Assembly: GCA_024137785.1 (NCBI GenBank)
Contig: JAHRHZ010000066.1
Span: 3,758,321-3,822,320, forward strand
Source of the DNA: Ginglymostoma cirratum
Lineage: Eukaryota
DNA length: 64,000 bases
Direction: 5' to 3'
Shown here: positions 1,134-63,799 of the stretch, one piece after another
Numbering within the stretch: position 1 is the first letter of the stretch
Layout of the letters: each line of letters starts with the position of its first letter
Made by a program: the position numbers and the translations under genes
Notes under the pieces: generated by a model
The model's input: only the letters and a program-made list of their open reading frames with translations
Told to the model about the DNA's origin: nothing
Database searches by the model: none

Positions 1134-1306
1134 AACAAATGCTGGAGATCAGAGGGCCACACAGCATCCATGGAGAGAGAACAAGCCAACGTTGAGTCTA
1201 GATGACTCTTCAGAACCAGCTCTGATGAACAGTTATCTAGACTCAATGTTAGCTTGCTCCCTCTCCACGGATGGTGTCTGACCCACTGTGAATGCTAGCA
1301 TTTGTT
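1134..1306 (+). mobile_element. Palindromic Penelope-derived element with degenerate hammerhead core (family C)
   Basis: About 80-bp inverted arms around ACCAGC. CTGATGA at 1222-1228, stem II (G)AGT(C)ATCTAGACTC and stem I AGCT/AGCT are present; the GAAAC is damaged. Confidence 0.7.
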
Positions 1307-1560
1307 TGGGGGAGGGGTGTAGTCGCAGGGGGAGCCCACAGAACATGAACATAGCATTCCTTCAGAACCATTACCTTGCACAACATGACGCTTCAATTCT
1401 TTTCTTGAGCATCCCAAAAAATTTTAACATCCACACTGGATGTTGTGCCTTCAGTGGTTTGGCTCAATCTTCTCAAAATCCCCTCCTGAACCCTTCTACT
1501 TTCCTACTGCCATTAAGACTTTTTCAAAACTTACCTCTTGATCAAAGTTTTAGTCATCTT

Positions 1561-1940
1561 CACTCAGAGTCATCGAGATGTACAGCATTGAAACACACCC
1601 GTCGGTCCAACTCGTCCGCACTAATCAGATATCTTGAAGAAGTCTTGTCCCATTTGCCGGCATTTGGCCCATTTCCTCCTGAACCCTTCCTATTCATATA
1701 CCCATCCAGACGCCTTTTAAATGTTGCAATTGTATCAGCCTCCACCACTTTCTCTGGCAGCTCATTCCATACACGCACCACCCTCTGTGTGAAAAAGTTG
1801 CCCCTCAGGTCCCTTTTAAATCTTTCCCCTGTCGCCTTAAAATTATGCCCTCTAGTTTTGGACTCCCCCACCTTTGGAGAAAGACCTTGTTTATTTACCT
1901 ATTTATGTCCCTCATGATTATATAAACCCCTATGGTCACC
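1561..1940 (-). mobile_element. CR1/HER1-type LINE 3' fragment
   Basis: ORF 1560..1871 contains ESKTRGHNFKATGERFKRDLRGNFFTQRVVRVWNELPEKVVEA, the CR1 ORF2 C-terminus, followed by the 3' UTR. Confidence 0.9.
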
Positions 1941-4594
1941 CCTCACTCAGTGGCAACATGCAGTTTTACAATGTGTTTATTGTTGCAGCATGGCAGAGAT
2001 TCCAGACCACGCAGGCCTGTGTCTTTTTTACATGACATCACAACATGTGATTTTACTGCTGTAATGGTACTTGCTTTGCCTTCAGTCACTCTTTCTGTAT
2101 TGTGTGTTGTATAGTAACATTGGTAAGCACACAGCCCAAACTGCATGTGTAAATTTGTGATACTGTAGCCATGTAAATGGTGTTGCAAATGAACTTCAAA
2201 ATATCTGATTCAACAGAACCCAACAAAATCTGTGTTATAAATACCTAGGATGGTATGTATAGAAAAATACAAGTGGCCACATATTGTAATGGGGAACTAT
2301 GAATAGGGATGATAGAGGCTCCCACTTTCTTTCTATCACATGGATAACAAAGAAACTCTCCCACACACCCCGCCTGCCAACGACATGTTGGAAGAACCCA
2401 TGTGTTTATCCATCTTAGGAACTCATCTTCCTGAGCGTATACATCCTGGGGGTAGGAACTCAAAATGACTCAGAGACACGATGCTATCCCAAACCATGAC
2501 AGATCATCTCTTTATGAGGCTTGGTGCCAAATCACTGAGGCACATCATTAAGTTTTATTACAGTAAAGGCTATACTAATAAACACAAGTTGTTGCTTCAT
2601 TTCTTTTTTTAAATATTCACTTAGACACTCTCCTCTTCATTTTGTTGGTTTTCGCATTCTGACTGGTGTTTCTTCTCTGTTTGGCTTTATCCAGCTCAGT
2701 CTCCAGACCCCTCTCCTTTTCAAATGAACAGAATCATTGAAACAAACGTGAAACACTTTACTCCAGATCAAACTTGCTCTTGAGCAGAATGTGTTCTCCA
2801 GAGAAGCAACTTGTACCTTGCGCAGATGAAACAGATATTTACATTTAATCTTCATTCAGTTCAGACAGAATTACACAGGTGTATCGCTGATGACTGGCAA
2901 GTGCTGTTTTTGAAATACAATGCCTGTAGGTCATCATAGCATAATGACCAAAGTGGTCTAATTGCCTTCAACATGATGTGTTTTGTCATTTAGCTTCCAT
3001 ATTCAAACAGTTATTTGTTGCTCGCTGACAGAAATGCTGACATCCCCCAGTGATGGGACATGTAATAAGCAGCCTGCCACAAATTAAGTCACTGCATGGT
3101 GACCTCTGTCTTCACTGAACTACTCTGCCAGGTTTGGTGTCGACACAAAAAACTGAGTTGCTTAATTGGACAGTCTCCACATGGGCACAAGTGGTGGTGA
3201 AAACAGCTGGAATCTCTCCCCAACCCAAACGCCTACCAACACTACCATATCCCAATGTGCTGTCTCACGCAGCAAACAGTTTGCAAAGGGGTTTTTCCAT
3301 GTTTAGTTTTAATTTTGTCCTGTACGAGGCCAACCATATTTTCCGATGCCAGAATCTTTTTGAAACTCTCCAAATCAAATCTGATGTTGAATCGAGACAA
3401 TTTCGCTCCATCAGCTACATAGTCCAAAGTGGTGTCTATCAGAGAAGGCGCTAAACCGAGGATTCTCAGGTGGTCGGAAAGGATCCTGTGGCACTATTCT
3501 GAAGCACAGGAGAGTTACCTGTGGTACCCTGTACAATATTTAACCCTCAAAGAACATCACAAAAGCAGATTAACTGGTCATTATCATACTCCATTTGTGG
3601 AAACTTGCTGTACATTAGGGAACCATCATATATTCCTAAATTAGACAAGTGACTACACTCCAGCCAATAAATGTGCTTTAGGACATCCCAAGGTCATGAA
3701 AGGCTCTATATAAATGCAAGTCTTTGCTCTTTTTCCTGAAAGCTCCCTACCTCTCACAGAAAGCTTCTATTCTCTCTACCATCTCCATGTTGTACAATAC
3801 TGCAGCGACTTTTGTGTTACACAGTACTTACACAGAACAGGAACAAACCATTTGGTTTAACAGGTCTACGTAAGCATTTACACTTCACCTAAGTCTCTTC
3901 CACCCTACACTTCAGCTAACCCTTTAAACATATCGCTGTGCTCCTTTCTCCCATATGTGGCTAATTTCAAACAGCTATGCAGAATTAATTGCTTTAATGC
4001 AAAAGAAACAAATAAAACCCAGTAAACTGTAAACAGCCAACATCTATGATCACTGCATATTTCAAACTGACAAACTGCGAGGTATCCGTAAACACAGGAC
4101 ATCAACACAATGGTAAAAATGGTCATGTGGTGAAAATACCATTAAAAAACACTAGATGATTATCACGAGAATCAAACAATATGTCATTAAGTAAATGATG
4201 CTGTGTAATAAGAAGAACAGTTTTCACTTTTTAATTCAGAAAATATTGCAAGTTAAAAAAAAACTTGTAAATGTTGCTGGCTCCTCCATGTAATAATTAA
4301 TAATGGAAGGAGGAACATACAAGATGGGTGCCTGTTCGTTGGAGTCATAGTTCCCTATACTGAGCTTGTACATAGCAATACCTCATGGATGGGTTTTGTT
4401 ATTTCTCAGTTGGGTGGTTCATAATGTAGGACTATTCTTTCTCAAGAACAAACAGCTAAAGAAATGCCTCATGGAACTCTGGTATGAGCAGTAGCAGTGG
4501 CAAGTCTTTGAAGACTAGGTGCCAGTTTATGTTAATGTGTCTACAGTCTTCTTTCCGAGTGAGAAGGCTGTGGATTCTAAATCCTACCTCAATC

Positions 4595-6068
4595 CTACAA
4601 AACTCAGAGTGGGTGACTTTACCTCTAAGCCTTTGGAATCACAACAATTTGGTCTGATGTCCATGTTCGTATTGTTGAAGCAAGTGACTAGATCTTCAGA
4701 ATTTTTCCTTTGTAGATGTACATCGATATCTGTGCTTACTTCCAGGCTCTAAACCACTGTCCTTAGGAAGATATGAAAAGCAACAGTAAAATACATTAAA
4801 GGTGCTATATAAATATAATAAAACATCCTGAGTTCCTTCAGAGCAGCATTATAAAACAAACTGTTATACCAAGTCACATGACAGATCATCGGTTAGATAG
4901 GCCAAAGAGGTCGGTCTAAAAAAAATGTCTTTACTGGGGAAAGCATAGTAGAGAGATTTTACATGGTGGATATTTCAGAACAAGACAGCTGTGAAGACAC
5001 AGCTACTGATGGTGATACAATTAAAATTGAAAACGCTCGTAGGCCATATTTAGAAGAGCATAGGTTTCTCAGAGGTTTGGTCCAGCTATAGGAAATTAGA
5101 GAGGTACGAGACCATGGAGGGCTTCAGAAACAAGCATGAGAATTTAAAAAAACAAAGCTCCGCCTGATCAGGGGTCAGTATCAGTCAGCAAATACAGAGG
5201 TCATAGGAGAATGAGGCAAACTTGCACAGTAGTTCTCCATGTTCTCAATAGTTCACTGTTTTTACAACAAATGAATTACTTTTGAATTACACTGCTGCAC
5301 TGCAGGCCTCAATTGGCAACCACCTTTTTCACACAGCAAGTTCAAAAACTAGTAAATGAGGAAGGGACCGGATGGATTTTGTCTTTGTTGATGTTGGCTG
5401 AGGAAGAAACTTTGACTAGAATGTGGGGATCTTAAACCTTGGCATAACATCTCCTCCGAAAGATGGCACCTCCAATGACCAAGCACTGTCTCAAACATCA
5501 GATTTCATCGTGCGCCGCATGATACCTCTCTTACATCATACCTCTCTAATTTCCTATAGCTGGACCAAACCTCTGAGAAACCTATGCTCTTCTAAATATG
5601 GCCTACGAGCGTTTTCAATTTTAATTGTATCACCATCAGTAGCTGTGTCTTCACAGCTGCCTTGTTCTGAAATATCCACCATGTAAAATCTCTCTACTGC
5701 GCTTTCCCCTGTAAAGACATTTTTTTTTAGACCTCCCTCTTTGGCCTATCTAACCGATGATCTGTCATGTGACTTGGTATAACAGTTTGTTTTATAATGC
5801 TGCTCTGAAGGAACTCAGGATGTTTTATTATATTTATATAGCACCTTTAATGTATTTTACTATTGCTTTTCATATCTTCCTAAGGACAGCGGTTTAGAGC
5901 CTGGAAGTAAGCACAGATATCGATGTACATCTACAAAGGAAAAGTTCTGAAGATCTAGTCACTTGCTTCAACAATGTGAACATGGACATCAGATTCCAAA
6001 GACATCCAGATTCCATTGTTGTGATTCCAAAGGCTTAGAAGTAAAGTCAACTACTCTGAGTTTTGTAG
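4595..6068. repeat. Large inverted duplication: arms 4595-5106 and 5539-6068, spacer 432 bp
   Basis: The right arm is the reverse complement of the left, with about 15 differences by eye plus one ~18-nt insertion. Confidence 0.95.
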
Positions 6069-6204
6069 CCCAGGAGGGAGAGAATCTTCACTTTGCTGGC
6101 CTATACGGTGAGGACAGAGGATGCACCACTGTTTGGCAAGACCAGACTCTGGTTCTGAAAGGCAAAACCATTAAGGTTCCCCATTTTAGATCAACATGCA
6201 ACTA

Positions 6205-6362
6205 ATAAAGGAAAGTATCATGGACACTGGAGATCTAAAATAGAGGCAAAGTGCTGGAGAAACTCAGCAGGTTTGGTGGTATTGATGGAGAAAGAAAGAA
6301 AGAGTTAACGTTTCAAGTCCAGATCTGCTTGAGTTTCTCCAGTACTTTGTTTTTATTTCAGT
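6205..6362. mobile_element. Old palindromic Penelope-derived element (family B), internally deleted
   Basis: aaagtgctggagaaactcagcag ... ctgcttgagtttctccagtactttg inverted arms; gagttaacgtttc is the antisense of GAAACGTTAACTC. Confidence 0.6.
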
Positions 6363-13849: not shown

Positions 13850-14170
13850 GAAAATATTGCAGACACTGGGTGCCTGAAATAAAAACAGAAAATACTAGCA
13901 AATACTCCACTGGACCAGCAGTATCCGTGGAACTTTGCACCATTCACACCCATTGTCATTTAATATCTCCTCCCCCTCGACTTTATCACAGTCATTTCCT
14001 TTGTTCTAAATTCTACCTGTCTTCCCTTTTGTTTTGAAACCCTCGTTTAAAAAACTACTGAAAAGCTGTTACAGTACATTTTCCAGTTCTGCCAAAAGGT
14101 TACAGTCTTGAAATATTAACCCCGACTTCCCCTTTACACAGAGCTGCTGAGTATTTCCAGCATTTCTTGA
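13850..14170. mobile_element. Old Penelope-derived element (family B) with inverted ends
   Basis: ctgaaataaaaacagaaaatactagcaaatactc at the left; cagttctgccaaaaggttacagtcttgaaatattaac...ctgctgagtatttccagcattt at the right. Confidence 0.5.
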
Positions 14171-15990
14171 ACAACCACAGCTGTTACAGCAGGACATGAA
14201 ATATATCCCAACGGGAAATGCGAGATGAACATAGGATAGGACGTAAAACAAGATTTGGTGACTGATGAAAAAACATAAGCAATGCAACACAGGAAAATCA
14301 ATGATGCCATCAATAATCTGCTGGTGGCTCGTGTCTTCTGGAAGCCACTGTGGAATGGGCATGGATTTGCACATCCTGAGGTGTGAGTACAGGTTTTCTC
14401 AATGTGCCTTTCCAAAACCCCATTAAAAACGGGCACAATAATTGTGTGAATTTCAAAACTGATTCCACTCAAGAACAAGGCAAATAATTTTCAAATTGTC
14501 ATGTCAGTCTAAATAAATATTGCTTCAACAATATTTATAATGATAGCTTTTTAAAATAAAACTGCAGCCTTGGTGGGAAAATAAAAGGAGGTGAGATAAG
14601 AGACTGAACTGTCGATCCCAATCATATATCCCTTTTCCGTTACAGCTAATCCTGGGAGAACTGATTTCCCAGAAATTCCTGCTGACAAGTATAATTATAC
14701 GAGCAAAGGCACTCCAGGCCAGTTCTTATCAAAAACAAAATACACAGGGGGTTACAGAATTTATCTGTGATAAATTTTTAGTGATGACATAATTATTAGT
14801 CTTGTCAACACCACTCGCATCAATACCGATTCACAGCTTTCACTTCTGTGTAAGACTGTTCAAAAATAGATAACATCCGGCTGAATCAGTGACCATCAAA
14901 CTCACAAGCACTCAGGAAAGATTCTTCAGGGCCACAGCTCAAACCCTTGGCTGAGATCAAGAGTCCTTTAGTGTCGGCGTGAATACCAGGCTTCAGATAG
15001 CCCTGAGATCATGGGGTGAGCTTCAAGACCACCACCACAACCTAATCACTGCTCCCTGCAGAAATCAGGGAGGGAAGGTCATTAAAATGGTGCAATCAGC
15101 TTAGCTCCTTTTCTGTGTCCTGTCCCAATCTGGCATAGCCGGAGGTATCACTGGGACCTGCCTTACCATTTTAACATGAGGTCTGCGCAGGTGAACATGA
15201 CAAAACTTGGGGTGAACAATAACCAGAAAGGGCTCTGTAAGGCGAGTTTGTTTTAAAGGGTCTCTCGAGCACACCTTCCATGCCTGTAGGAGGAGCAATG
15301 TTCCTCCAGGTCCCACAAGATCCGTTGGGACTCTTGTTCCCTGCCAGGGAAATCCACTCCCTGAGCACTTATGTGGCTCCCTCGAGTGTTTCCCACAGCT
15401 GTCTGAACTGTTGTCTACGAACACAATTTACTTTTTGCCAAAACAGTTGTACATTTACAAGATCCCATCTACTGACCATGAGCAAGTACATACGCCAAGT
15501 TGCTCCTTTGTCGATGACTGAGCTCATTAATTGTCTCCTGGACATGCTGATGCTCAGGCTTTTTTTTAAAATCAATAGGATGCATTTTAATTAGCCACCC
15601 AGTCTTCTGTACATGTGATCAAACAAGGATTATCAATTTGTCCTTTCTAAAGGACAGCTAGCTCAGAACACACCACAAAGCTTCACAGCCAATCACTTGT
15701 TTTTGAAGTGTAGTTGGAACATAAGGAAACATGACAGCCAGTTTTGGACACAACAAAGTTGTGCAAACAGTACTGAGATAAATAACCAATTGTACAGATT
15801 TAATGGAAAGTTGGGGAATGCTAGTAATACTCAGCAGGTCAGGCAGCATCCACGAAAGATCAGCCTGAAAGATTAACTCTGTTTCCTCTCCATATTTACT
15901 GAATTGTGCAGACCATAATCACGGACTTCAAGGACGTCTGTTGGAACATGGATATTGACCAGGAAACCTCAGACGGCATTAGAAAAGGAT

Positions 15991-16224
15991 ATACCTAGGT
16001 GTCAAGCATGGGGCTGGATGAACACAGCAGGTCAAGCAGCATCATAGGACCAGGAAAACTTGACATTTCGGGCCTAGATTTCTGATGAAGGGTCTCTGCC
16101 CGAAACGTCAAGTTTTCCTGCTCCTATGATGCTGCTTGACCTGCTGTGTTCATCCAGCCCCATGCTTGTTATCTCGGATTCTCCAGCATCTGCAGTACCT
16201 TTTATCTCTGATACCTAGGTGTCA
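15991..16224 (+). mobile_element. Young Penelope-derived palindromic element with intact minimal hammerhead core (family A) and 14-bp TSD
   Basis: TSD atacctaggtgtca at 15991-16004 and 16211-16224. 76-bp inverted arms at 16003-16078 and 16093-16168 with 4 mismatches. Core CTGATGA-a-GGG..CCC-GAAACGTC at 16082-16109. Confidence 0.9.
16077..16114 (+). ncRNA. Minimal type I hammerhead ribozyme motif (predicted cleavage after C16109)
   Basis: gauuu CUGAUGA a ggg-ucucug-ccc GAAA CG UC^ aaguu. Stem I is gauuu/aaguu, stem II is ggg/ccc, and helix III is reduced to the palindrome ACGU, as in PLE-associated dimeric hammerheads. Confidence 0.75.
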
Positions 16225-20849: not shown

Positions 20850-21397
20850 TAAGTACATTGGTTAGGCCACTTTTGGAATACTGCATTCAATTCCAGTCTC
20901 CCTGCTTTAGGAAAAATGTTGTTAAACTTGAAAAGGGTGCAGAAAAGATTCACAAGGGTGTTGTCGGGCTGGAAGGTTTGAGCTATAGGGAGAGGCTGAA
21001 TTGGCTGGGGCTATTCTCCCTGGAGCATTGGAGGCTGAGGGATGACCTTAAACACATTTATAAAATCAAGAGGGGCATGGATAGGGCGAATAGCCAAGGT
21101 CTTTTCCCCAGAGGAGGGGAGTCCAAAATTAAAGGGCATAGGTTGAAAGTGAGGGGGGTAAGATTTAAAAGGGACCTGAGGTGCAGTTTTTTAATGCTAC
21201 AGGTATGGAATGAGCTGCCAGAGGAAGTGGTGAAGGTCGGTACAATTACAAGATTTAAGAGGCATCTGGATGGCTACATGAATAGGAAGGGTTTAGAGGG
21301 ACATGGGCCAAATGCTGGGAAGTGAGACTAGATTAGTTTAGGATATCTGGTCAGCATGGATGAGTTGGACCGAAGTGTGTGTTTCTGTGCTGTACAA
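20850..21397 (+). mobile_element. CR1/HER1-type LINE 3' portion
   Basis: ORF 20858..21325 contains LVRPLLEYCIQF.SP...LSYRERLNWLGLFSLEHWRLRDDL...VWNELPEEVV. Confidence 0.92.
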
Positions 21398-25980: not shown

Positions 25981-25994
25981 ACAATTACAAAAAG

Positions 25995-26445
25995 TCATAG
26001 TTATAAAGCATGAAAAAGACCCTTCGGTCCAATTCATCTGTACCAACCAGACATCCTAATCCTAACCCAAAACATCAACTTTCCTGCTCTTCTGATGCTG
26101 CCTGGCCTGCTGTGTTCCTCCAGCTCCACACTGTGTTGTCTCTGACTCCGGCATCTGCAGTTCTTGCTATCTCTAAATTGATCTACTCTGATTTATCAGC
26201 TTTTGGCCCATACCTCCCTAATCCCCTTCCTATTCACATACCTATCCAAATGCCTTTTAAATGCTGTCATTGTACCAGCCTCCACCACATCCTCTGGCAG
26301 CTCGTTCCATACATGCAGCACCCTCTGCACGAAGAGGTCGTACCTCATGTCCCTTTTAAATCTTTCCCCTCTCACCTTAAACTTGTGCCTTTTGGATTTC
26401 CCTAAAAGACCTTGGTTATTCACCCCATCCATTCCCTTCATGATT
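25995..26445 (-). mobile_element. CR1 LINE 3' fragment interrupted by a Penelope-derived insertion at about 26060-26175
   Basis: ORF 26196..26441 contains KSKRHKFKVRGERFKRD...QRVLHVWNELPEDVVEAG; the tail resumes at 26055-25995. Confidence 0.88.
26060..26175 (+). mobile_element. 5'-truncated family A Penelope-derived element
   Basis: cccaaaacatcaactttcctgctcttctgatgctgcctggcctgctgtgttcctccagc...gcatctgcagttctt is homologous to 16099-16206. Confidence 0.8.
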
Positions 26446-34903: not shown

Positions 34904-35173
34904 CTCGAGAGCTTCCAAGGTGACAAAACTGGCTATTCCAAATCCATCAATGAGATCTTCCTCTCCTGAAGTGGAGTCTTTCCTCCGACGTCGCGGGGGT
35001 CTGGGACGGGATGAGGCGGGATTTTTGTGACTGCCCTCTCGCTCAGACCCTGATGAGGACAGAGCGCTGTTCGCCCTCGAAGTGCCTCCTCCTCCCTTTG
35101 CTTTCCTGTCTCGGTTTCTCTGAGCTCGAGATCGCCTACTCCGGCGAAGCCCACTACACCGAGGGCGATCCAT
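34904..35173 (-). CDS. AUTS2: First coding exon (90 aa) of an AUTS2-family gene (AUTS2/FBRS/FBRSL1); the family is secure, the exact paralogue is not
   Basis: Translation is [23 protein letters not shown]...SSSGSERE...[37 protein letters not shown]. This matches the conserved AUTS2-family N-terminus ([27 protein letters not shown].EALE). The ATG at 35173 is in a strong Kozak context (gcaATGG). The exon ends GAG|GTAAGG with the GT at 34903-34902, the phase-0 position after EALE where AUTS2 exon 1 ends. Confidence 0.9.
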
Positions 35174-41414: not shown

Positions 41415-42800
41415 GTAATAGGAGCAGAAATAATCCATTTGGCCCCTCAAAACTGCTCTGCCATTCAATAAAATCATGGGTGATATGTTTGTGTTTCAAA
41501 TTCCACGTTCCCATCTATCCCCAGTAACCACAGATTCCCCTGCCTAGTAAGTATCTATCTACAACAACAAACTAGTTGGAAAAGCTCAGCAGGTCTGGCA
41601 GCATCTGTGAAGGAAAAAACAGAGTTAATGTTTTGGGTCTGATGACCTTTCCTCTGAGGAAGGGTCACCGGACCAGAAACATTAATTCTGTTTATTCCTT
41701 AGCGGATGCTGCCAGTCCTGCTGAGCTTTTCCAGCAAGTTTGTTTTTGTTTCTGATTTACAGCATCCGCAGTTCTTTCAGCTTTTATTTAGAATCCATCT
41801 ACCTTTGTCTAAAAAGATTCAGTCATTCTGCCTCTACTGCCTTCTGAGGCAAAGAGTTCTGAATTCAGAAAGAAAACATTTCCCATTTCTGTTCGTAAAA
41901 AGGCGATCCCTAACTTTAAAACAGTGCCTCCCAGCTTTGGACTGACTCGCAAGAGGAAACATCTATTTTATATCTCTCTAATCAAAACCACTCAGGATTT
42001 TATACATTTGAATCAAGTCACTCCTCACTCTTCCAGTGGAAACAAGCCCAGCCTGTGCAACCCTTCCTCATAAGACAACCTGCTCATTCCAGGTATCTAT
42101 CCAGTAAACCTCCTCTGAACCATTTCTGATGCATTTACATCCTTTCTTAAGTAAGGAGGCCAATACTGCACACTGTATTCAAGATGTGGTCTCACCAATA
42201 TCCTGTATGAATGAAACATAACATTCTGACCTTTATGGTCAACTCCTTTTCTAATAAATAATAGCATCTTATTAACCTTCCTAACTGCATGTCATACCTG
42301 CATACTGATGTTTTGCGACTCATGTACCAGACCACTTAAATTCCTCTGCACTTCAGAATTCTGCCACTCATCTTTTGCGAAGTTATATGCTTTTATCTTA
42401 CATCTGATGCTTTCCCTAACTTCCTTAGTTAACCAGAGATGGTGGGTCCTCCTTTTAGAATTTTTCTTTATAGTTGGGAATATAGCTATTCTGAGTACTC
42501 TAAAATATCGCCTGAAATGCCTGCCACTGTGTCGCTATCTATCTCCTTGCTGGAGTGCCAGTTCACTTCAGCTAACTCAGCTTCCTTGCCCACATAGTTG
42601 TCCTTACTTAGGTTTGAAAGACAGTCTTAGACCCAATCTTGGCCTTTTTGTGAACTGGATGTAAATATTCCATCATTTTGTTATTACTGCTACCTAGATG
42701 TGTCTTAAGTCTGGGTCATTAATTAGTCTTGTCCCATTGCACAATTCCAAGGCTAATATAATCTGCTGTCTGGTTGGCTCCAAAACATATTACTCTAAAG
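41415..42800 (-). mobile_element. CR1 LINE fragment (tail-to-tail with a + strand CR1 tail at 41260-41410), interrupted at 41563-41789
   Basis: taggagcagaaataatccatttggcccctc is the antisense tail; tcaagatgtggtctcaccaa is antisense LVRPHLE. Confidence 0.8.
41550..41802 (+). mobile_element. Palindromic family B Penelope-derived element with hammerhead core and degenerate 13-bp TSD
   Basis: TSD agtatctatctac / agaatccatctac. Inverted arms flank CTGAGGA-a-GGGTC-accg-GACCa-GAAACATTA (41654-41684). Confidence 0.85.
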
Positions 42801-43149
42801 GAACTCTCAAAAGCACTGTATGAACTCCTCATCTGATTGAATAGCAAAGCAAACTCAAGGAGCCGAGTGGCCTGCTCCTTGTTTGTATGTTTGAAATCAA
42901 TTTTGCAGAATCCAGTTGCTTTTAAAAATATTACCTGGGATGGGAGCATTTTTATTTTCCAAAGTGATTGCAAGAAGAACCAATGTCACTCACCAAGTTC
43001 ACCTGGAGAGTTGATATCATTTATTAATTTCACTAATGGAGGAAATTACACAGTAAATTCATATGGAGCCACAATTCCACTCATTAATTTTGATGCAGAA
43101 GCAAATGTATTGAATTTTTAATCGTGCAATGTATGTTCATAACCAAGTA

Positions 43150-44722
43150 AATGACTCAGCAAATTCACACAAACAATCATACTAAATTTACACAGTCACA
43201 GTCAACCTCAGCAATTCCACAAATGCAGTCTAACACCTAAAGCAGGTTCAGGAATAGAGGCACAGATGCTCAGCAAATTCACACATCATCTCACTCTCCA
43301 AGCATATATCAGGAGGCAGTTACCATCAGCAATTTTCAAAAACGGAGACAAACTTACTCAGCAAATTTACCTGAACAGACAACCATACTTGGCAAGTTTG
43401 CAGAGGCAATTTACTAAAGAAAATTCAGAAACAGAGGTAACAGCACTCAAGCTGTTCAGACACAGACTCAATCAAATCTGGGAAAAGCTGCAAACACATA
43501 GCAGCTACAGAGACAACAGTGAGTTAACCCTTCTGATGTGAACCTTTTGCCAAAATTGTGCTCTGATCATTTAACAATGGAGACTATTTTAACCCAACCT
43601 TGCCTGGGAGGAAAATGGTATCAACTATCCAATTAACACTTACCTGATTTTATGTTGCAATTATGTCATATAAAAAATTGACATTTATATTGCACCTTGC
43701 CTGATCTAGAATCTCAGAATGGGCACAGCACAAAAGGAAGCCATTTGGCCCATCATGTCAGTGCTCTCTGAAAAAGCAGCCCAGCTAGTCTTGCTCCTCA
43801 TCAAGACATAGCATTTCATCTGGTTATGTACCTTGTGACTGTTGTAGTAAATCAAAAATGTGGATGCCAAATTGAGCACTGAAGGCTTCCACAAAGTGTG
43901 TTATGAAAGGACGAGATGATCTGTTTTGTGGTGGTGTGAACAGAGGAATAATTGTTCACTAGGAATGTGAAGTTGGGCCAAGTGTTGAACAAAAAGTGAC
44001 AGTTCAGATCTCAGTAGTTTCCCGTCAGGAGAAAATTAACTTTTAACTTTTGCTCTGTCTGACCCATGTTTTTGCAGCATTTTCCATTTGTGCTTCAAAT
44101 TTCTAGCATCTGCACATGTTGCTTTTTGTTCACAGTCAGTGCCAGCAAGTTCACAAGCAGAGGCAGTGATACTCAGCAAATTCGCATAAAAAGACAAAAC
44201 CACAACAGCAGATTCACACACAGATAGACAATCATAGAAAACAAGTTCACGTGGAGAGGCAATCAGATGCAGCAAGTTCACAGAGGACATCACACTCTGC
44301 AAGATTACACACAAATACACCCAGCAAGTTCACACACACATGTAGGTAGTGATTCCCAGCAAGTTCAAACACACTCATCAATATGAGATGGAGAGGCAAT
44401 CACACTCAGCAGGTTCAGCTGGAGAAGTAATGGTATTCAATAATGTCACCAAGAAGCAATTGCAGGAATTTCAGATGGAAGAGCAATCAGACTCATCAAG
44501 TTCATACTCAGAGCTATTACTCTTGGCAATATCTCATACAGCGGCAATCACACTCAGTAACTCACTGGATTTTATACAAGATGCAGTGGCTTAAACAATG
44601 ACCACAACTGGCAAGTTCAAAGGCAGGCACAGAGCTCAGCCAGTGGTAATCCTACTCGTCAAATATACACATATAAGACATACTCAGGAAATTTACACAC
44701 TGAGATAATCATGTTCAGCAAG

Positions 44723-44730
<8 letters not shown>
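43150..44730 (+). repeat. Degenerate ~31-bp tandem array (consensus approx. CAGCAAGTTCACAyrGAGAGGCAATCACACT) in two blocks, 43150-43500 and 44140-44730
   Basis: The core recurs at 44143, 44174, 44206, 44239, 44270, 44297, 44322, 44357, 44407 and onward, and at 43157, 43271, 43327, 43359. Confidence 0.75.

Positions 44731-44773
<43 letters not shown>
44725..44773. repeat. (CA)n microsatellite, about 24 units
   Basis: Perfect CA run grown from the ...ttcacac end of an array unit. Confidence 0.95.
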
Positions 44774-44775
<2 letters not shown>

Positions 44776-44811
44776 GCAGTCAAATGCCACCACTGAACAG
44801 ATTTATAGAAG

Positions 44812-45110
44812 GGGTTGGCTCGGTGGCTCAGTGGTTAGCATTGCTGCCTCACATCACCAGGGACCCAGTTTTGATTCCACCCTTGGGCAACTGCCTGTGT
44901 AGAGTTTGCACATTCTCCCCTTGTCTGCATGGGTTTCCTCCAGGTGTTCCCATTTGCTCCCACAGTCCAAAGGTTAGGCAGATTGGACATGCTAAATTGC
45001 CCATAGTGTTCAGGGATGTGTAGATTTGGTGGGTTATAGGGGAATGGTTCTGGGACAGTGTGGACTTGTTGGGCCAAAGGGCCCGTTTCCACACTGTAGG
45101 GATTCTATGA
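44812..45110 (+). mobile_element. tRNA-derived SINE (HE1-like)
   Basis: ggtggctcagtggttagcattgctgcctcac head, tttgcacattctcccc body, and CR1-like tail gggccaaagggcccgtttccacactgtagggattctatga. Confidence 0.9.
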
Positions 45111-45339
45111 TGAAGAGACAATGATTTTAAAGATTAAAATGGGCAAAGTCTTACACAAATAAAATAAGACTCAGTGAGTTCACATAGATCAGCAATCATG
45201 TTCCTCAAGTTCATGTCATGATAACCTTATGGAATGAAATACCCTGAAATGTTCTATTTTTGACTGTGATCTAATCTGGAAATGTCTCCTTTCATTAGTT
45301 CATGGTAGTTAGGTGTTAAACAGCCTTTTATTCAACGTA

Positions 45340-50365: not shown

Positions 50366-50512
50366 AGGTTAGCCATTTCTGATGAAGGGTTTAGGCCCGA
50401 AACGTCAAGTTTTCCTGCTCCTATGATGCTGCTTGACCTGCTGTGTTCATCCAGCCCCATGCTTGTTATCTCGGATTCTCCAGCATCTGCAGTACCTTTT
50501 ATCCCAGGTTAG
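50366..50512 (+). mobile_element. Young family A Penelope-derived monomer with intact hammerhead core and 7-bp TSD
   Basis: TSD aggttag at 50366-50372 and 50506-50512. Core CTGATGA at 50379-50385 and GAAACGTC at 50399-50406. About 105 nt downstream are identical to the copy at 16098-16206. Confidence 0.9.
50375..50411 (+). ncRNA. Minimal type I hammerhead ribozyme motif (predicted cleavage after C50406)
   Basis: auuu CUGAUGA a gggu-uuag-gccc GAAA CG UC^ aagu; all core nucleotides are present. Confidence 0.75.
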
Positions 50513-53189
50513 TGAAGAAGGCTTTTTGTATGCTTGTCTTTATTGGTCAGTGCATTGAGTATAGGAGTTGGGAGGTTATGTTTGGTTGTACAGGAGATTG
50601 GTAATATCACTTTTGGAATATTGCATTCAATTCTAGTCTCCCTGCTATAGGGAGGATGTTGTGAAACTTGAAAGGGTTCAGAAAAGATTTACATCTTTTG
50701 TTGCTAGGGTTGGAGAGTTTGAGTTATATGGAGAGGCTGAATAGGCTCGGACTATTTTCCCTGGAGCGTCAGAGGCTGAGGAGTGACCTTATAGAGGTTT
50801 ACAACTTCATGAGGGTATGGATAAGGTCTTTTCACTCGGGTGGGTGAGTCCAAAACTAGATGGCATAGGTTTAAGGTGAGAGGAAAAAGATTTAGAAGGT
50901 GATGTGTGTATGGAATGAGCTGCCAGAGGAAGTGGTGGAAGCTGGTGCGATTACAACATATACAAGGCATTTGAATGGGTATATGAATAGGAAGGGTTTA
51001 GAGGGATATGGGCCAAACGCTGGCAAACGGGACTAAATTAATATAGGATATCTGGTCGGCATGAACAAGTTGGGCTGAAGGGTCTGTTTCCATACTATAC
51101 AGTTTTATGACTATGACTCTAATTAATTCCAGACACCGGTTTTGAACCTCAAACAGAAGGCAAAACCATTTACTAAATAACACAATAACTTTAGCAAAGG
51201 AACAATTAAGAAAAATGGAAAACTGAGGTCTATGCTTTAAACCCAAAACGTTTCATTTCAGCACCCAATCACATGAAAGGCAATTAGACAAACAACACAG
51301 TTAAAGGATAAATAAAAGAAAACAACGTAACTTGCCAGATAAATATATATTTATAAATATACATAAATATGGATTCCTTTATTCCTTTTCTGAAACATTG
51401 ATCAGGATCACCTTCTCAATTTACTCAGGCAAAGGCAGCAATAATTCTAATGAGGCTTTCTATTTTTTGGGCTTCCAGAGCTGAAGTAGCATATTAGGCA
51501 GGGAGCTGTCAAATCCTCATGCTGTCACAGTAGTAACCCAGAACCACCTCTCAGAAAACATAGTTCAAAAAATAGCTTCAGTCCTAACAGACTGATTGAC
51601 TCTTCCCCAGGTCTCCATTACCATTCAATACCTGGCATCTACTTTAATATAGGATCTCTTCTAGACTTTCCAGAACCAATTCCCAGGTACTGGCCTCATT
51701 AGTAGCCAACTTCAGCTGTCTGCTAAAAACACAATGCTCTTCCCGGAATTGCTGGGTCTGTTGGAACCTTTTAAGTGAAGAATTAGTTTACAGTTTTCCT
51801 CTAGGCCTGGCCTAAGCAACAAACAAACTTGCTTGGTCTGTTCTTTTCCTGTTACCATGAGCTGTCCCAAAGTTCAGAAGTCAGTTCCAGCTCAAAATTC
51901 GAAATTTATAAAAGAATAAAACTTTAAAAAATTTGAAATCAGTGAGGGCTATAACACTTGGTTTAGAGTAAGTGGATGCTTTGAACAACTGGAGGTGGAA
52001 CCTGGTCCAATCCATGAGTTGGATGCATGACCCACAAAGTGGTGTGTCCTTCCAGTAACACTACAGTGATAGGTGCAGCAGTGACGTGTAGAAGTGATTC
52101 AGAGATATGCCATGAGGGTTCTTAAAGGCTGGTGCATAATAAATGTCAATTGGATGCTGATGTCTGTGGATGTGGGGTGCATGCGGTCAGTGTCCTTGGA
52201 GTGTGCCCTGAGATGTTGGTGCCTAGTGTCCAACAATGAGCTCCTATGGAGCAAGTGGTGAGTAAAATTCACCAGGGACACCTTCTGACTTCCATTTTGA
52301 GTATTCTTAATGTCTAGTTTGTTTGGCATATTCGGGAAATTAGGAATCTGAATATTAATGATACTTTTAACAAGCCCTTTAATAATTCCCCTTATTTGGC
52401 ATCTCCCTGCTGCCTAGTGATATACTTGCCTCTCAACTTGGTGGATGCTTAAGAGATGCAGTGAGTTGCTTCCAATTTTGAGATAATCCTCTCTACACTT
52501 CTCATATGATTATGCCACAAATCTCATCATAGCTGAAGCTGCTCAGGCCCCTATAAGATTCCACCCAATATCTATTTAGTTGGTAGAGGAAGGTGCCATA
52601 TTGTTGACAGAAAGTGATGTCATAACAGAGAAAGGAAAAACAAAGGTGCATGGGCAAGAGGTTGACTGAAAGCAACAGAATACAAGTGGAACCAATGCTG
52701 AAAGCGAAAAAACACAAAGATTCTGGATGACTTGATTGATAATACTCACCATAATTATAAGCTATGTAAATTGGAGTTATATGAATACATTGGGGCAACT
52801 AATTATACAAGAAAAGTGCCACCTTCAACATATTCGGCAAATGGTAAAGTGAAATTGTCACTCTTAAGTGGGTCAGCTGATTGACTGAGTGATCTTCTTT
52901 TGGGAACAGCAACAAAACCAGAATACTTCTTTAAAAGAAATCAGATAATACATTAGCCAAGTAAGATTTCTAATCAATGTCTTTATTTTGGCTTAGGAAG
53001 AAAGGATCTCTAACATGGTCTGTCATAGAACACTTATGCTTTAACAGAAACTGAAAATGCAGAGAGTAACACAAAAATGTCAATGTACATGTAGATGCTG
53101 CTTTTGATGCTGATGATGTGTTTAGCTTATCAACAAACAAACAGGTGTAGATGCAATTGATGTGCTTGTAGCAATTTTCCACGAATTCT

Positions 53190-54350
53190 TAGATTCTAGA
53201 AAACTGTCACATCATTAGAAAATTGCCAACATTATACCCTGATTCAAAAAGGTATAGGGAGACAAAAAGAAAACAGGAACTATAGACCAGGTAGCTTAAC
53301 TTCTGCCATTGAGAAAATGTTAGCGTCCATAGTGAAGGATGCAATGGGGAACATTTAGGAATAAAATTACAATCAAGCAGAGTCAACATAGTTTCATGAA
53401 AGGGAGGCCTATTAAGAGTTTTGTGAGGAGGTAATAAGCAGGATAAATAAAGGAGAATCAGCAGATGTAATATTTTTGGATTCCCAAAAAGCGTTTGATA
53501 AGGTACTACATGTAAGGCTATTTCATAAGGTAAGATGTTGAGGTAATATACTGGCATGGATCGAGGGTTGACTAACTGGTAGAAGTCTAAGAGTTGGGAC
53601 AAAAGGAATATTCACAGAAGGGCTAGGAGGAACTGCCGATGCTGGAGTCTGAGATGACAAGGTGCGGAGCTGGATGAACACAGCAGGCCAGGCAGCATCA
53701 GAGGAGAAGGGAAGTTGACGTTTTGAGTCTGGACCCTACTTCAGAAAATAAAGATTTCTGAAGAAGTGTCCAGACCTGAAATGTCAGCTTTCCTGCTCCT
53801 CTGATGCTACCTGGCCTGCTGTATTCACAGAAGGGCAATTTGTCACTAATGGGTGCCACAGGGATCAGTGCTGGGCTGTAATTATTTGCAACATACTTTA
53901 ATGATTTGGATGACAGAATTGAATGTACCATTGCCAAATTAATAGATGACACAAAAATAGGTGGGAAAGCAAGTCATGAGGACGACACGCAGAGAGATAT
54001 TTTGCATGAGTAGGTGAAATTTTGGCAGATGGAATGGGAAAATATGAGGTTATGCACTTTGACAGGAAGAATAGAAAAGCTGAATATTATTTAAAAGGGG
54101 AAAGACTTCAAAAGGCTGCAATACAGTGGGATTTTGGAGCTCTCGTACACGAACTACAAAAAGCTACATTCTAAATTCAGCAGATAATAAGGAAGACAAA
54201 CAGATGTTTGGGTTTCATTTCAATGAAATGGAATATAAAAATAAGGAGGTCTTGCTAAAATTAAACAAACCTGTAATCATTCCAAACCAAGAGTACTATG
54301 AATGGTTTTAGTTCCCCTCTCTAATGAAAAATCTAAAGACAGTCCAGATC
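53190..54350 (+). mobile_element. CR1 LINE RT region interrupted at 53624-53821
   Basis: aactatagaccaggtagcttaac (NYRP.SL), ttggattcccaaaaagcgtttgataaggta (DFQKAFDKV), gtgccacagggatcagtgctggg (VPQGSVLG) and gatgacacaaaa (DDTK). Confidence 0.9.
53609..53836 (-). mobile_element. Palindromic family A Penelope-derived element with perfect 15-bp TSD
   Basis: TSD tattcacagaagggc at 53609-53623 and 53822-53836. Two inverted, mutated hammerhead cores lie around 53715-53785. Confidence 0.9.
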
Positions 54351-55760: not shown

Positions 55761-55958
55761 TCTCAGCAGGTGGGATAAAGGCAAAATACTACGGATGCTA
55801 GAAATGTGAAACAAACTCAGAGAACTTTGGAGAAACTCAACAGGTGTGGTGAGAGAAACAGAACCATATTGAAGAAGAGTCATACTGCATTCAAAATGTT
55901 AATTCTGTTTCTCTCTCGACCGATGCTGCCAGACCTGGTGAGTTTTCTCAGTAGGTGG
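55761..55958. mobile_element. Old palindromic family B Penelope-derived element with 13-bp TSD (1 mismatch)
   Basis: TSD tctcagcaggtgg / tctcagtaggtgg. Degenerate core ttgaagaagagtcatactgcattcaaaatgtta. Confidence 0.7.
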
Positions 55959-59198: not shown

Positions 59199-59364
59199 CA
59201 CCCACTACTAATGAGTTCTGAGGAAGGGTCACTGGACCTGAAAAGTTAACTCTGTTTTTCCTTCACGGATGCTGTCAGACCTGCTGAGCTTTTCCAGCAA
59301 CTTTGTTTTTGTTCCTGTTTTACAGCATCCGTAGTTCTTTTGTTTTTTTCACCCAGTACTAATG
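59199..59364 (+). mobile_element. Family B Penelope-derived monomer with hammerhead core and 15-bp TSD (1 mismatch)
   Basis: TSD cacccactactaatg / cacccagtactaatg. Core gagtt CTGAGGA a gggtc-actg-gacct GAAAaGTT aactc, with perfect stem I gagtt/aactc. Confidence 0.88.
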
Positions 59365-59479
59365 CCTCAGGGAACACTCTATCGAAAGTAGCTACAAGCC
59401 CTGCATATCCAAGGACCTAGGCATCCAACATGATAGCCTCTCCACACTACCATGGCACATCTTTGATCTACTTATAACT

Positions 59480-59715
59480 CTGGAGTCAGATGCAGCCCAA
59501 ATGAGGGAATGATGACAGATTTCCTTTGTTAAAGCGTTTTCATGAACCAGATGGTTTTTACAACACTCAACAATAAAGTTTTTTTTTGATCACCATTAAA
59601 CAATCTTCGATAATTCCAGATTTTTATTTTAAATTTCACCATCTGCCATGGTGGGATTCGAACTTATTTCCTCAAAACATTAGACCGAGATTTATGGACT
59701 GGTCTGTCTAATGAC
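59480..59715 (-). mobile_element. tRNA-derived SINE (old)
   Basis: gggattcgaac is an antisense B box; catctgccatggtgggattcgaac is homologous to the SINE at 23375. Confidence 0.6.
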
Positions 59716-60386
59716 TTTATCACTACACCAATATCTCCCCAGATTTATTTTGGATCTCCAGCATCCACAGTGCTTTTTGCTTTTATTATGGGAGAGACTT
59801 CTTCTTCCTTGAGCTTGTAAACACTTGTAAATCAAGGTGTGGCATGTGAAAAGCAGCACAGCCTTTCAATGGTGGAAGGTGTGCCACATCTTTCACTTTG
59901 GAGAATCTTCACGTATCCTGGGGTGCTTCTTGGAAGTTTGTGACTTTCTGCTGGCGGAGTTGGTGTCTGGCTGGTCTTGCGGATTGTTTGACACTGGAAG
60001 GTCCTGCCAGGGGTGAGAATTTCTTTCTCGCTCACCGCATGATTCATTGAGTCGCTGACACATCTTATTTGCATTCATATAGAGATGAAAGACATGTCAT
60101 AACTTAGCCTGATCATTGGCAGATGTGATACCATCTCATTCACTCACTGCCATGCTTGAAATTCAAAATGGAAAATCTTGGCAGAGGTGTGATTTGGTAG
60201 ATGATTGTGGATTTGCTGCCCTTGCTCCCATTGTTTAGTGGAGGCTACAGATTGGTGAGATTATAAAGCAAAGATCAATTATCACACGATTACTGCATTA
60301 CCCTTGAGGTGACATCCATGTCATAAAGTACGTGACAAATCCTGTGGCTGAGTAATGTGCTGACACAGCGGAACCACATCACAACA

Positions 60387-60532
60387 CTGCAGTTTAATTC
60401 AAAGTTTTGGCAAAGATCTGTAGCTTGGGTTTTGGGTGAGGTTGTTGACTTGCTCGCTGAGCTGGCTTATTTTCGTTCAGAGGTTTCGTCACCATGCTAA
60501 GTGACATCATCAGCGAGGCCTCCTGCAGTTTA
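60387..60532 (-). mobile_element. Family D Penelope-derived element with hammerhead core and perfect 10-bp TSD
   Basis: TSD ctgcagttta at 60387-60396 and 60523-60532. Minus strand reads CTGATGA t GTCAC-ttagcatg-GTGAC GAAAC cTC tgaa (60513-60476). Confidence 0.85.
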
Positions 60533-61669
60533 CTATCAACAGGATGAAATAAACTTTTTTGATATTAACTCCCAAGTTTAGTACTTACATTTAATGCAAG
60601 TGAACGAATTACAAGCTGGCTTTAAGGCATAGTTCAGACCTCAGATGTTTATAATGTGTGTAAAGATTCAAGTAAAAGTCTACAAAAGTTCCTAATATCC
60701 TGCTACGATTTTTCTTCCAAGGAATTGCATGGACTTTTTACATTTAAAAATGGAATCATTACTTCACTGCTGTTTTGTGCCATCAAACATCACATGAAAT
60801 GTGTGACTACTCTGTAAGATCTACATTTTATTTAACATGTAACAGAACTTTCACTGAGTTGATCCCTTTTAAGATATTAAGTTATCTTTGATGATACTCA
60901 TTAAAACACAGCAATTATCTTAATCATAGTATAATTCTGGATCTCTGCTGGATATCCAGCAAATACAAGTTTGATAAGCTACAATTTCCCAAATCTGTGT
61001 CACAGCCAAACCACCTTCCTCACTGCCACCTATTATCTGTGCAATTGACATCAGTATTCATGTATTCGAGTTAGCTGGCTGCACATATCCAATTACGACA
61101 AATGACTCTTGCTTGCATAGGTCGTTTACTAAAACTAAACTATGCAGATAAGAGTTTAATGCACATTAAGTCTCAAAGTACTTAACTATCTTTCATTTCA
61201 AATGCATTCAGATCGCCAGCTCTGAAGAGCCAACAGTCACACAGCAGCCAGAGATCTTCTCATTCGCAATTCTTCTCATTTCATGACCAAATTTCCTCCA
61301 TCAAAACACCAAAAATGGCAGATTAAAATCATCATTCCTTTCTTTGGTGTTTGTGGAACTGTGCTGTGTTCACATGCCTTTTGTCTGGAGCATGCTTTGG
61401 TCTGCTTATTGCAGCTTTTGTGTGGTACTGATATGCTCCGAATCATTGTTCAAGGACGGCAAATAATAATTAGTGACTGCAGACAAGTTTGGTGGCGTAA
61501 GTTCTTCTTTTAGAAGTGCATAAGTCCTTTTAAAACAGTTCTGTGCACAACAGCAGAATATGCTAGGAGTGCTGCCAATATTTAATGCTCAAAGCTAATC
61601 ATCAGGTGGTGGCTATGTACATGCTTTGCAATTCAGCGGGTGATAATCACAAATATTATATTTAATGGG

Positions 61670-61860
61670 CTAAACTGTGAATGTTGGGAATCTGAAATAA
61701 AAACAGATAAATGCTAGAAACACGTAACAGGTCCCGAAACATTTGAAGAGAGGAAAAAGATATGATTAATGTTCAGAGTAGAAATCCAAGCTGAAAAGGC
61801 AACGTATATTTTCTCTTTGTGATTGCTGCCTGCATATTTCTGGCATTTTGTTCTTTTAAT
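61670..61860. mobile_element. Very old palindromic Penelope-derived remnant (another partial copy at 62350-62435)
   Basis: aatctgaaataaaaacagataaatgctagaaa ... atatttctggcattttgttc inverted ends. Confidence 0.5.
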
Positions 61861-63799
61861 TTAGGCTTTTCTGAAGAGTGCAAACATGTTCAATACAGTT
61901 AGGTGAGAAATTCAGAATTTTTATCAAGATCATCTTTTTTCTTGCAGGCAAGTAAGATTCAGCAACATTGTCCTCAAACTGGAAATCTGGAGCAGGAACA
62001 GAAACGTTTAATTTCACAAGTTCTTCAATGTAGGGTCATGTCACCTATTCCACACCAATACACACATTGAAGTCAGATTTTCAAATTCACAATGGGGTTC
62101 TTGAAAGACCATCACTTATTCAAAACCTAACATTTCTTTGTGGCACTCTCCCCGCCAAGATTTGCTGGAGGCTGTGAGCCTTATCAAAATTTCTGAGAAG
62201 CCAAATATTCCTCCAGCTGACAGGACAGGAAATTGGATCCAGAGCCTTGACTTTAAATTGACCATCAGTAGGGGACCCACAAAAATATTTAACGTGGCTG
62301 ACCTCTATAAATCTGGTCCTTTGTGTTGGTGAGCTATCCACACCTTCGCGCTAAAAGCAGAAACTGCTGGAGAAGCTCATCGGGTCAGGCAATAATAAAA
62401 TTAATGTTTCCAATTCCAATGACTCTTCTTCAGAAATAAAGAGGGCAGGACATATTCTGTTGACAAATCGGGAGGAGGAGTAAGTGGATCAGATGGAAAG
62501 GATGTTGAGAGGAAATGAAAAATCCAGTGCTAATGGTTGTAGAGGTGCTAATGATAAGTGTGAATAATTGAAAATAGTTTGGCAGGCCATGCTCATTCAA
62601 GTCCTTTGTAGTTGGCCAGATATTGCAAATACAGGGGAGTGACAAATCTTACATTTAATACAGAGGAGTTCAGTTGCATAGGTGTGACATTTTATGGTTC
62701 AAAACAAGATCATAAAATAGTTAAGAATGATGAAGTGACTTGGTCTATCTCAATTCAACCATCCAAAAAGCTGCAAATGTACCCCTGCCCCATTGCATTT
62801 AAACCTTCAATTGTTTTCTAAAATATATGGGAGTTTATACTTCCACTACTCCATCAGTTATGGAAGATATCGCTATGAACCACCGACCAGCAAAGTTATA
62901 TGAATTTTCATCAGGGTTGCTGCAAAGTTTATGTTCTCTCTCCTTTAGGTTCTTGTTAAGAATAACTACTGCTTTCAAATTCACGTGTCAGGGCTAGCAG
63001 CAGTTACACTCAAGGCTGAAATTTGCAGTGGGCACCATGGCAGTGGCCCCTTTAATCACAGGAGAGGTTTCAAGTCAGATTCCTGACAGCAAGTGGAACT
63101 ACCCCAATTAATCTGGAAGGTGGAAAAGACCGACGCGGGACTCCTGTCCACTCTTGGCAGGATGCTGATTAGGTCCATTAATAAGCAAGTAACACTCATT
63201 ATTCTTGATGCCAGCACAATTGATACCAGCCCTTGCAAGATCACCCAGTTTGTAGCAACCACTTGGGATGGGCCTGGGTTTGTTTGTCAGGCATTTGGTG
63301 CTTGATTAGGGACCTGGCATTGAAAAACGAGTTTCCACTTAAGCCACTTCTTTGTCTTTCTCTCTCACAACACTGAAGTACTTAACCTGCAAGCTTTACC
63401 CTGTGACTCTAGCTTCGACCTTACTTCCCTTTGGGGACCCAAAATGTCCCTGGACTTCTAGTGCATTCAGTGCCCCAATAACCACTGTTCCCCTGGCACT
63501 GGTGATCAAGAGCAACTACTGGCCCTGGACAGAGCGACAGCATGTGGGACTTTTGCTCCCAGGGATCTTAATGGCTAGGAGATCAAACCTGCTCACTTTA
63601 TTGTGTGAAGGACACTTGATTTTGTTGGGCAGCCCTGAGAAAATTGATAGGACTTTCTTGATAGTTCTCTGGTGAGTGGGTGTGATACCTGTGGGCCCCA
63701 AAATAATCCAGCTCATAGATTTTACGGGAATCCCAGAAATACTGAAGCTGAAAACTATTAACACCCAGAAAATATTTACATGAGAGTGCTGACACCATA

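Follow-up and report, generated by a model that had tools for sequence, protein, structure and literature searches.

Short hammerhead ribozyme insertions in the genome of Ginglymostoma cirratum are probably promoterless end pieces of Penelope-like elements

What are the short insertions with a hammerhead ribozyme core that are scattered through the genome of Ginglymostoma cirratum, and how do they arise? The question is raised by a stretch of 64,000 nucleotides (nt) of contig JAHRHZ010000066.1 (assembly GCA_024137785.1, positions 3,758,321 to 3,822,320 of the forward strand), which is referred to here as the window. A preliminary description, made from the letters of the window, had listed about 13 such insertions, seven of them with target-site duplications (TSDs), and had taken them for non-autonomous, retrozyme-type relatives of Penelope-like elements (PLEs) that form a probably unannotated ribozyme reservoir. 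Both counts stood up. Profile hidden Markov models (HMMs) for four families (A to D), trained on genomic copies outside the window and applied at E ≤ 0.01, find 20 arms that make up 14 insertions in the window and no match in the reversed window, BLAST adds one weak tail remnant to give 14–15 insertions in total, and a credible TSD, i.e., a direct repeat of 7–15 bp, is present in 8 of the 15 candidates (Table 1). In a wider set, a TSD score of at least 9 is reached by 47 of 94 elements and by none of 159 permuted flank pairs. The assignment to minimal type I hammerheads of the PLE type, located in TSD-flanked insertions derived from the pseudo long terminal repeat (pLTR), was likewise borne out. 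As to the nature of the insertions, we arrive at a different view: they are probably promoterless and mostly decayed end pieces of PLEs, consisting of hammerhead and tail, that result from internal priming and run-off at the RNA 5′ end.

The insertions are not peculiar to the window. In a sample of 511.5 kb from the 4.36-Gb genome (289 contigs), made up of the window, 200 kb next to it and five places of 50 kb at a distance, we found 130 arms in 106 insertions, i.e., one insertion per 4.8 kb, in agreement with the earlier estimate of about one per 5 kb; the reversed sequence gave none. Fifteen of the 20 distant places originally chosen read as N and were dropped, and the five retained contribute 60 in 247.9 kb. 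A rough extrapolation leads to about 0.9 million insertions genome-wide. One 19-mer of family B alone has 17,997 exact matches in the genome, and a family A pattern, counted with its templated C class left out, has 11,096.

The connection to autonomous elements was established through open reading frames (ORFs) for PLE reverse transcriptase (RT) and GIY-YIG endonuclease (EN). Family A pLTR sequence is present in all ten GIY-YIG loci that were fetched from 96 matches (22,577 candidates). Two loci, L025 and L026, contain open frames of 650 and 714 amino acids (aa) with RT and GIY-YIG, which carry a CX4CxxC linker and end about 260 nt before the hammerhead; the GIY-YIG domain scores above the cut-off and RVT_1, with E ~ 2e-5, below it. 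Open frames of 1,800–3,600 aa with GIY-YIG were rejected as runs of N. For the other families, homology to the GIY-YIG region, in the same orientation as the core and upstream of it, was detected at 14 of 60 loci for B, 7 of 30 for C and 2 of 30 for D. It mostly ends 220–270 nt before the core, and the few cases further off may belong to other copies. For family D the link is weak (E ~ 1e-4 in the two loci, plus a readable GIY-YIG motif), and no linker is present in the single D frame that could be read, which agrees with Penelope/Poseidon. A CX2-5CxxC linker before GIY-YIG marks the Neptune clade, and the CX4CxxC form is given for Neptune and Nematis (PMC8557442; here and below, statements on the literature refer to those passages of the cited sources that were available to us). 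Judged by the linker, which was read in frame in family A alone, this family would belong to the Neptune clade, and B and C are probably Neptune-like as well. Because of the linkage to GIY-YIG and RT, and because the stub starting at 50373 matches a long copy from another part of the genome without a difference over 133 nt (100% identity), we regard the elements in the window as 3′ ends of autonomous PLE families. The window itself yielded no PLE ORF in a tblastn search (E ≤ 10).

How much of the ribozyme is left in these pieces? We defined a strict class by the core CUGANGA / GAAA / UH, a helix II closed by G10.1–C11.1 and a bulged base after A9. Among the 12 parsed arms in the window only those with cores at 16082 and 50379 pass, 59218 and 60513 pass a relaxed test with the core letters kept and the helix III palindrome lost, and the remaining eight have a broken core. 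In the whole sample, 19 of 130 arms are strictly intact, 88 having a parsable core region. The stems given in the preliminary description hold for family A (16082 and 50379), for 59218, for family D (60513) and for the common form of family C, but not for 41654, where the 5′ strand of stem I is lost and positions 10.1–11.1 form a G.A mismatch, nor for 1222, which reads cagtt/gactc and has lost G12. A descriptor restricted to the core letters matches 285 sites in 1.25 Mb of sequence, part of which was selected, with a fully paired stem II in 224, versus seven sites, none with a fully paired stem II, in the reversed sequence. The covariation between families that had been claimed is present in both stems. 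For stem II, all ten types with at least three copies are fully paired (40 of 40 pairs vs. 29.7 after shuffling, p = 0.002), and for stem I, 45 of 56 pairs are formed (36.3 after shuffling, p = 0.002); since the stem types are related to one another, these p values serve as a guide only. Helix III reads ACGU in intact copies, and 162 of the 285 core-only matches are palindromic at 15.2/16.2, most losses of this palindrome being due to CpG decay. In cofolding, the structure of minimum energy differs from a dimeric hammerhead. An Rfam scan of the window found no hammerhead family; its best match, mir-505 (34.7 bits vs. a gathering threshold of 60), was discarded, as it merely reflects the hairpin at 1129–1306.

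The case for end pieces is built on the boundaries of the insertions. Their 5′ ends are bimodal: 41 of 117 usable arms (of 130) begin within 6 nt before the core, 15 in the adjoining 74 nt upstream, 24 reach the edge of the model and the rest lie inside motif or tail, the first three figures being 21, 4 and 19 for family A (n = 59). Arm starts fall at positions −9 to +1 in 45 of 94 cases and at the cleavage site in 2 of 94, and ribozyme cleavage was therefore rejected as the process that sets the ends. In long copies, a TATA-like hexamer begins 29–31 nt before the initiator A in 6 of 6 cases for family A and 5 of 7 for family B, and 29–32 nt before it in 11 of 16 cases for family C; in family D, it lies 48 nt before the core in 16 of 22 copies. 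This A in the pLTR is presumably part of an initiator. The TATA-like box is located upstream of the point where short copies start, and these copies lack it. We infer that the fixed 5′ boundary corresponds to the transcription start; if RNA starts at the initiator, the hammerhead would represent its first ~36 nt. The 3′ ends form two clusters near +97 and +126, which delimit the tail and agree with the pair of RT start sites described for PAc, the Poseidon element of Anolis carolinensis (Frangieh et al. 2024, PMC11167929).

A further clue comes from the bases at the junction. The base before the start is G in 2611 and A or T in 2954 copies of family B, and G in 4973 and A or T in 6123 copies of family A. 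Composition leads one to expect a G:A/T ratio of 0.34, so that G is enriched 2.4–2.6-fold just before the start. The dinucleotide TG precedes the start in 16 of 30 copies in each family, possibly through CpG decay or re-copied letters, and was not used as evidence. In about 4% of the G-class copies (197 of 4973 in A, 98 of 2611 in B) the first bases of the element are tandemly repeated, where about 8 and 3 cases would be expected by composition. All six loci inspected (L330, L336, L350, L355, L358 and L262) are short copies with the junction at about position 1500 and ~7 re-copied bases. Realignment of a finished cDNA on the end of its template, recalling repeat addition by telomerase, would give such repeats; slippage during repair of the junction is the alternative.

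Many insertions are double, and their architecture is informative. Six of the 14 in the window are head-to-head inverted pairs centred on the ribozyme start. In a set of 95 close head-to-head pairs from the sample and selected loci, as compared to three tail-to-tail pairs, 78 have an arm that starts at the initiator, and exactly one tail is present in 82, two in 6 and none in 7; 47% one-tailed pairs would be expected (p = 2e-15). Long PLE copies are also arranged head-to-head (L025:2121-5662 and L026:2970-5941), with the inverted left end reaching the tail and the right end stopping short. Two head-to-head junctions, at about 1273–1500 in L105 and about 1275–1500 in L108, join different families (A or B to C), which suggests either two template RNAs in one event or a nested insertion.

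Taken together, these features would be explained as follows. RNA would start at the pLTR initiator, and the template would be uncleaved, capped RNA, stemming from the active element's own mRNA or, only slightly less likely, from promoter-bearing truncated copies that are read in trans. RT would initiate internally, some 100 or 130 nt away from the RNA 5′ end, and run off that end, leaving a promoterless stub. Priming on both target strands, with one cDNA from each start site, would produce a one-tailed head-to-head pair within one TSD, the two cDNAs being linked 3′ end to 3′ end. For the parent element the ribozyme would have a function, and in the stubs it would be a passenger; the motif decays there after insertion, with CpGs as centres of the damage. 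In its strongest form, this proposal would make the stubs natural products, numbering in the order of a million, of a dimeric RT-endonuclease that primes on both target strands at a pair of fixed sites inside the RNA, copies the uncleaved, capped leader up to its 5′ end plus a G derived from the cap and now and then realigns to re-copy the first ~7 bases, a telomerase-like addition of repeats by a member of the RT group that is sister to telomerase. We put this extended version forward tentatively and consider it rather less likely to be right than wrong.

The retrozyme- or SINE-like (short interspersed element) nature proposed originally would imply that the short copies are a self-propagating non-autonomous family, mobilized in trans from short masters and possibly via circles made by the ribozyme. 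Short copies do account for about 72% of the exact-match family B copies (17,997 matches; weighted estimate based on the first 30 loci in each class), their TSDs are clean, PLE proteins can mobilize pLTR-flanked sequence in trans (PMC3846280), and the junctions of B palindromes include eight pairs that are similar and near-symmetric. Yet the junctions of all 95 inverted pairs are distinct, short copies have no TATA-like box, only 2 of 94 arms start at the cleavage site, and short and long copies of family B are equally close to the medoid (0.90, n = 74, vs. 0.88, n = 11; p = 0.41), only 16% of the 74 short copies having a clearly closer neighbour. Tandem arrangement, i.e., head-to-tail repeats each with a hammerhead, is missing: Tandem Repeats Finder reported no arrays of these elements, and a single same-strand pair within 1 kb occurs among the 130 arms. 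A tandem retrozyme was accordingly rejected, the claim of a separate non-autonomous element was not upheld, and we consider a self-propagating short family quite unlikely; mobilization in trans as such may take place.

Several observations weigh against the reading of the insertions as run-off end pieces. Neither at the initiator nor at the cut site do RNA reads show a peak of beginnings or ends, as judged from one deep poly(A) run that is insensitive for cleavage, and with no start pile-up in the RNA the start site is deduced from DNA alone. No full-length copy of the type pLTR-ORF-pLTR is present in the fetched loci, the two longest ORFs being 5′-inverted or truncated, and in none of 41 cases does a tail end run on into shared element sequence, so that the element's own mRNA is a candidate template only. 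The 5′ ends of family D (eight copies) are spread from −30 to +1, where the TATA box predicts about −18. Moreover, the model of family B also served to score old B-like subfamilies, whose alignments can stop artificially at the core. As for the extra G, letters of inverted arms account for it in 6 of 30 cases for family A and 8 of 30 for family B, most TSD-defined junctions contain filler or microhomology instead of a single G, and a clean single extra G at a TSD-defined junction was seen by eye at only two loci. A copied cap as the source of G is therefore suggestive only.

Some of these points would also suit ordinary 5′-truncated PLE copies, the ends of which cluster because RT stalls at the folded hammerhead or at stem I. 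The boundary falls on the 5′ strand of stem I, where a stall could cluster the ends, which adds to the points against run-off; the RNA lacks a start peak, and PLE insertions are often 5′-truncated with inverted pieces (PMC8557442). A stop would, however, be expected on the 3′ side of the structure, and yet the whole motif is copied before the ends are reached; the spacing between TATA-like box and initiator fits in A, B and C; and the G excess together with the re-copied first bases points to a physical end of the template. Stalling is therefore unlikely in our opinion, and run-off at the RNA 5′ end remains the preferred explanation.

Do the motifs serve a function where they have landed? A functional ribozyme reservoir under selection, which cuts or regulates host transcripts, might be argued from numbers: 19 strictly intact arms in 511.5 kb (of the 130 found) correspond, by rough extrapolation, to about 1.6e5 strictly intact motifs per genome, 34,567 of 12.9 million reads of the poly(A) run match the family A end, and seven insertions in the window probably lie in an intron of an AUTS2/FBRSL1-like gene. 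The decay pattern argues to the contrary. CpG positions of the core, including the catalytic G12, are lost in 21–25 of 81 arms and other core positions in 3–10, and G12 itself (21 of 81) fares like the adjoining CpG bases. The minimum-energy fold of the monomeric motif is not a hammerhead, and where an inverted arm is present, the motif is predicted to be hidden within a long hairpin. Even in dimeric form, minimal hammerheads are only weakly active (PMC4209133), and that of PAc needs its protein (PMC11167929). In the RNA, the depth on the family A end is equal in both directions, reads contain strand-switch joints at the initiator, the unique flanks of the 50379 insertion are nearly devoid of coverage, and a read-end peak at the cut site is missing, as mentioned above; a second RNA run (X22) gave 15 reads only. 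The motif is probably a passenger in transcripts, and we judge a selected reservoir very unlikely. The earlier notion of a reservoir thus goes too far per copy, with few intact arms and a G12 that decays like any CpG, and may hold in absolute terms, as the number of intact motifs could, by rough extrapolation, be about 1e5; it is not new in kind, since element type and ribozyme have been known since 2014. As a separate observation, RNA run X21 differs from the genome over L025:5150-5700 by A>G at 14 and T>C at 19 places, which could be hairpin editing or plain copy variation in this repeat.

The features of the window are compiled in Table 1. No clean empty-site allele was found for the 50379 insertion. 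On the minus strand, positions 34904–35173 were recognized as the first coding exon of an AUTS2/FBRSL1-like gene with a visible GT donor (score 0.92, low recognition). Judged from the sequence, window positions 1–34900 probably belong to the first intron of this gene, and the seven insertions mentioned above are those located 3′ of the exon.

Table 1. Hammerhead-related insertions and intact ribozyme motifs in the 64-kb window
Feature	Position	Strand	TSD	Remarks
Family C head-to-head insertion	1129-1212 (inverted arm), 1216-1306 (direct arm)	-, +	none found at its flanks	core at 1222; G12 lost in both arms
Decayed B-like head-to-head remnant	6212..6361	both		ribozyme core deleted; profile HMM
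Decayed B-like arm	14084..14164	+	13 bp, 1 mismatch, 14062-14074 / 14177-14189	A6 and G8 lost
Decayed B-like remnant without core	15819..15884	-		BLAST and profile HMM
Family A head-to-head insertion	15991..16223		perfect, 13 bp, 15991-16003 / 16211-16223	inverted arm without tail about 16004-16077; direct arm with tail 16078-16210
Strictly intact minimal type I hammerhead	16078..16113	+		predicted cut after 16109; sequestration by the inverted arm predicted
Older A-type arm with tail	26066..26174	+		core missing
Family B head-to-head insertion	41561..41780		weak, 10 bp, 1 mismatch	left arm without tail, right arm with tail; core 41654 broken
Young family A solo stub	50373..50505	+	7 bp, 50366-50372 / 50506-50512	initiator to tail end
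Strictly intact minimal type I hammerhead	50375..50410	+		predicted cut after 50406
Older A-type head-to-head insertion	53609..53836		perfect, 15 bp, 53609-53623 / 53822-53836	both cores damaged
Old B-like head-to-head insertion	55761..55958		13 bp, 1 mismatch	dead core (C3 and G12 lost)
Family B solo stub	59214..59349	+	15 bp, 1 mismatch, 59199-59213 / 59350-59364	begins at initiator A
Tail-only remnant (weak)	59744..59787	+		BLAST E 2.8e-5
Family D (Penelope/Poseidon-like) solo stub	60397..60523	-	10 bp, 60387-60396 / 60523-60532	core at 60513; palindrome lost
Decayed B-like tail remnant (weak)	61673..61756	-		profile HMM E 0.002
Old B-like arm	62355..62437	-		core at 62433; stem II broken

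The window contains further repeats. A long inverted repeat at 4595–6068 has arms of about 510 nt with 94–97% complementarity and a 426-nt spacer; it has no match among the fetched-locus matches listed and no long ORF, and is possibly a recent local inverted duplication. The degenerate repeat region at 42981–45213 consists of about ten copies of a 31–52-nt unit (60–70% identity), with a CA microsatellite and a frequent dispersed repeat in between. Four related 3′ fragments resembling long interspersed elements (LINEs), with about 80% identity, lie at 1564–1895, 20852–21396, 26173–26399 and 50592–51116; they are probably of the CR1/L2 type.

How do these insertions compare to known systems? Minimal type I hammerheads in the pLTRs of metazoan PLEs, dispersed as single copies, were described by Cervera and De la Pena (2014, PMC4209133). 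The motifs reported there share with ours the short helix I, the bulged base after A9, the G10.1–C11.1 pair and the palindromic 15.2/16.2 without a loop 3; in both cases, a genome contains several covarying families, whose copies are mostly single, dispersed and associated with truncated PLEs, with some pairs on opposite strands. The copy number in G. cirratum is far higher (17,997 for the single B 19-mer vs. 4,000 and 9,000, which were called remarkable), and neither the one-tail rule nor the constant start at the initiator forms part of that account. Endonuclease-containing (EN+) PLEs (PMC8557442, PMC3846280) are alike in the order of RT and GIY-YIG, 5′ truncation, an inverted 5′ copy, TSDs, an optional ~30-nt tail on one side and TATA plus initiator in the pLTR, the latter described for a rotifer pLTR (PMC3846280), as well as, for the Neptune clade and our family A, in the CX4CxxC linker. 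Unlike in these elements, short stubs from initiator to tail dominate here. For inversions and tails, the two papers favour self-priming or resolution by the EN, whereas our data fit two primed cDNAs. PAc (PMC11167929) offers a mechanistic parallel, with two internal RT start sites that bound the tail, cutting and extension of both target strands, a predicted dimer and uncleaved RNA as the main template. It is, however, an in vitro system of the Poseidon clade, whereas most copies here are Neptune-like, and the account, in the passages available, gives no RNA 5′ end mapping, run-off stubs or 5′-junction repeats.

Retrozymes are defined as tandem units, each with a hammerhead, that give rise to circular RNA (PMC7229834; bioRxiv 10.64898/2026.07.22.740005). 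The animal non-LTR retrozymes described in these sources resemble our insertions in being non-coding, related to pLTRs and PLE-dependent and in having a type I hammerhead, but the copies in G. cirratum are single or head-to-head. In L1, twin priming on both target strands leads to inversions as well (PMC2912911); there, the second primer anneals at varied internal places, while in the present pairs the 3′ start sites are fixed for both arms, which diverge head-to-head. Full-length copies of L1 and SVA can carry an additional G at the 5′ end, which has been ascribed to the cap (PMC2912911).

Inversions, tails, TSDs and promoter motifs of PLEs are thus already known (PMC8557442, PMC3846280), as are the ribozyme, its link to PLEs and its dispersed copies (PMC4209133). 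In the literature searched, which did not extend to subscription papers, Repbase/Dfam and supplements, we found no account of initiator-bounded stubs, a one-tail rule or 5′-junction repeats in PLEs; the supplements of PMC4209133 and PMC11167929 may show initiator-bounded copies. The integration of PLEs, the start of their RNA, inverted ends, one-sided tails and the role of the hammerhead are stated as open questions (PMC11167929, PMC8557442), and the stub boundaries lead to sharp predictions for the published PAc in vitro system. For the genome of G. cirratum, the stubs may matter as a dense intronic source of long hairpins, and they may constitute a repeat class that annotation misses.

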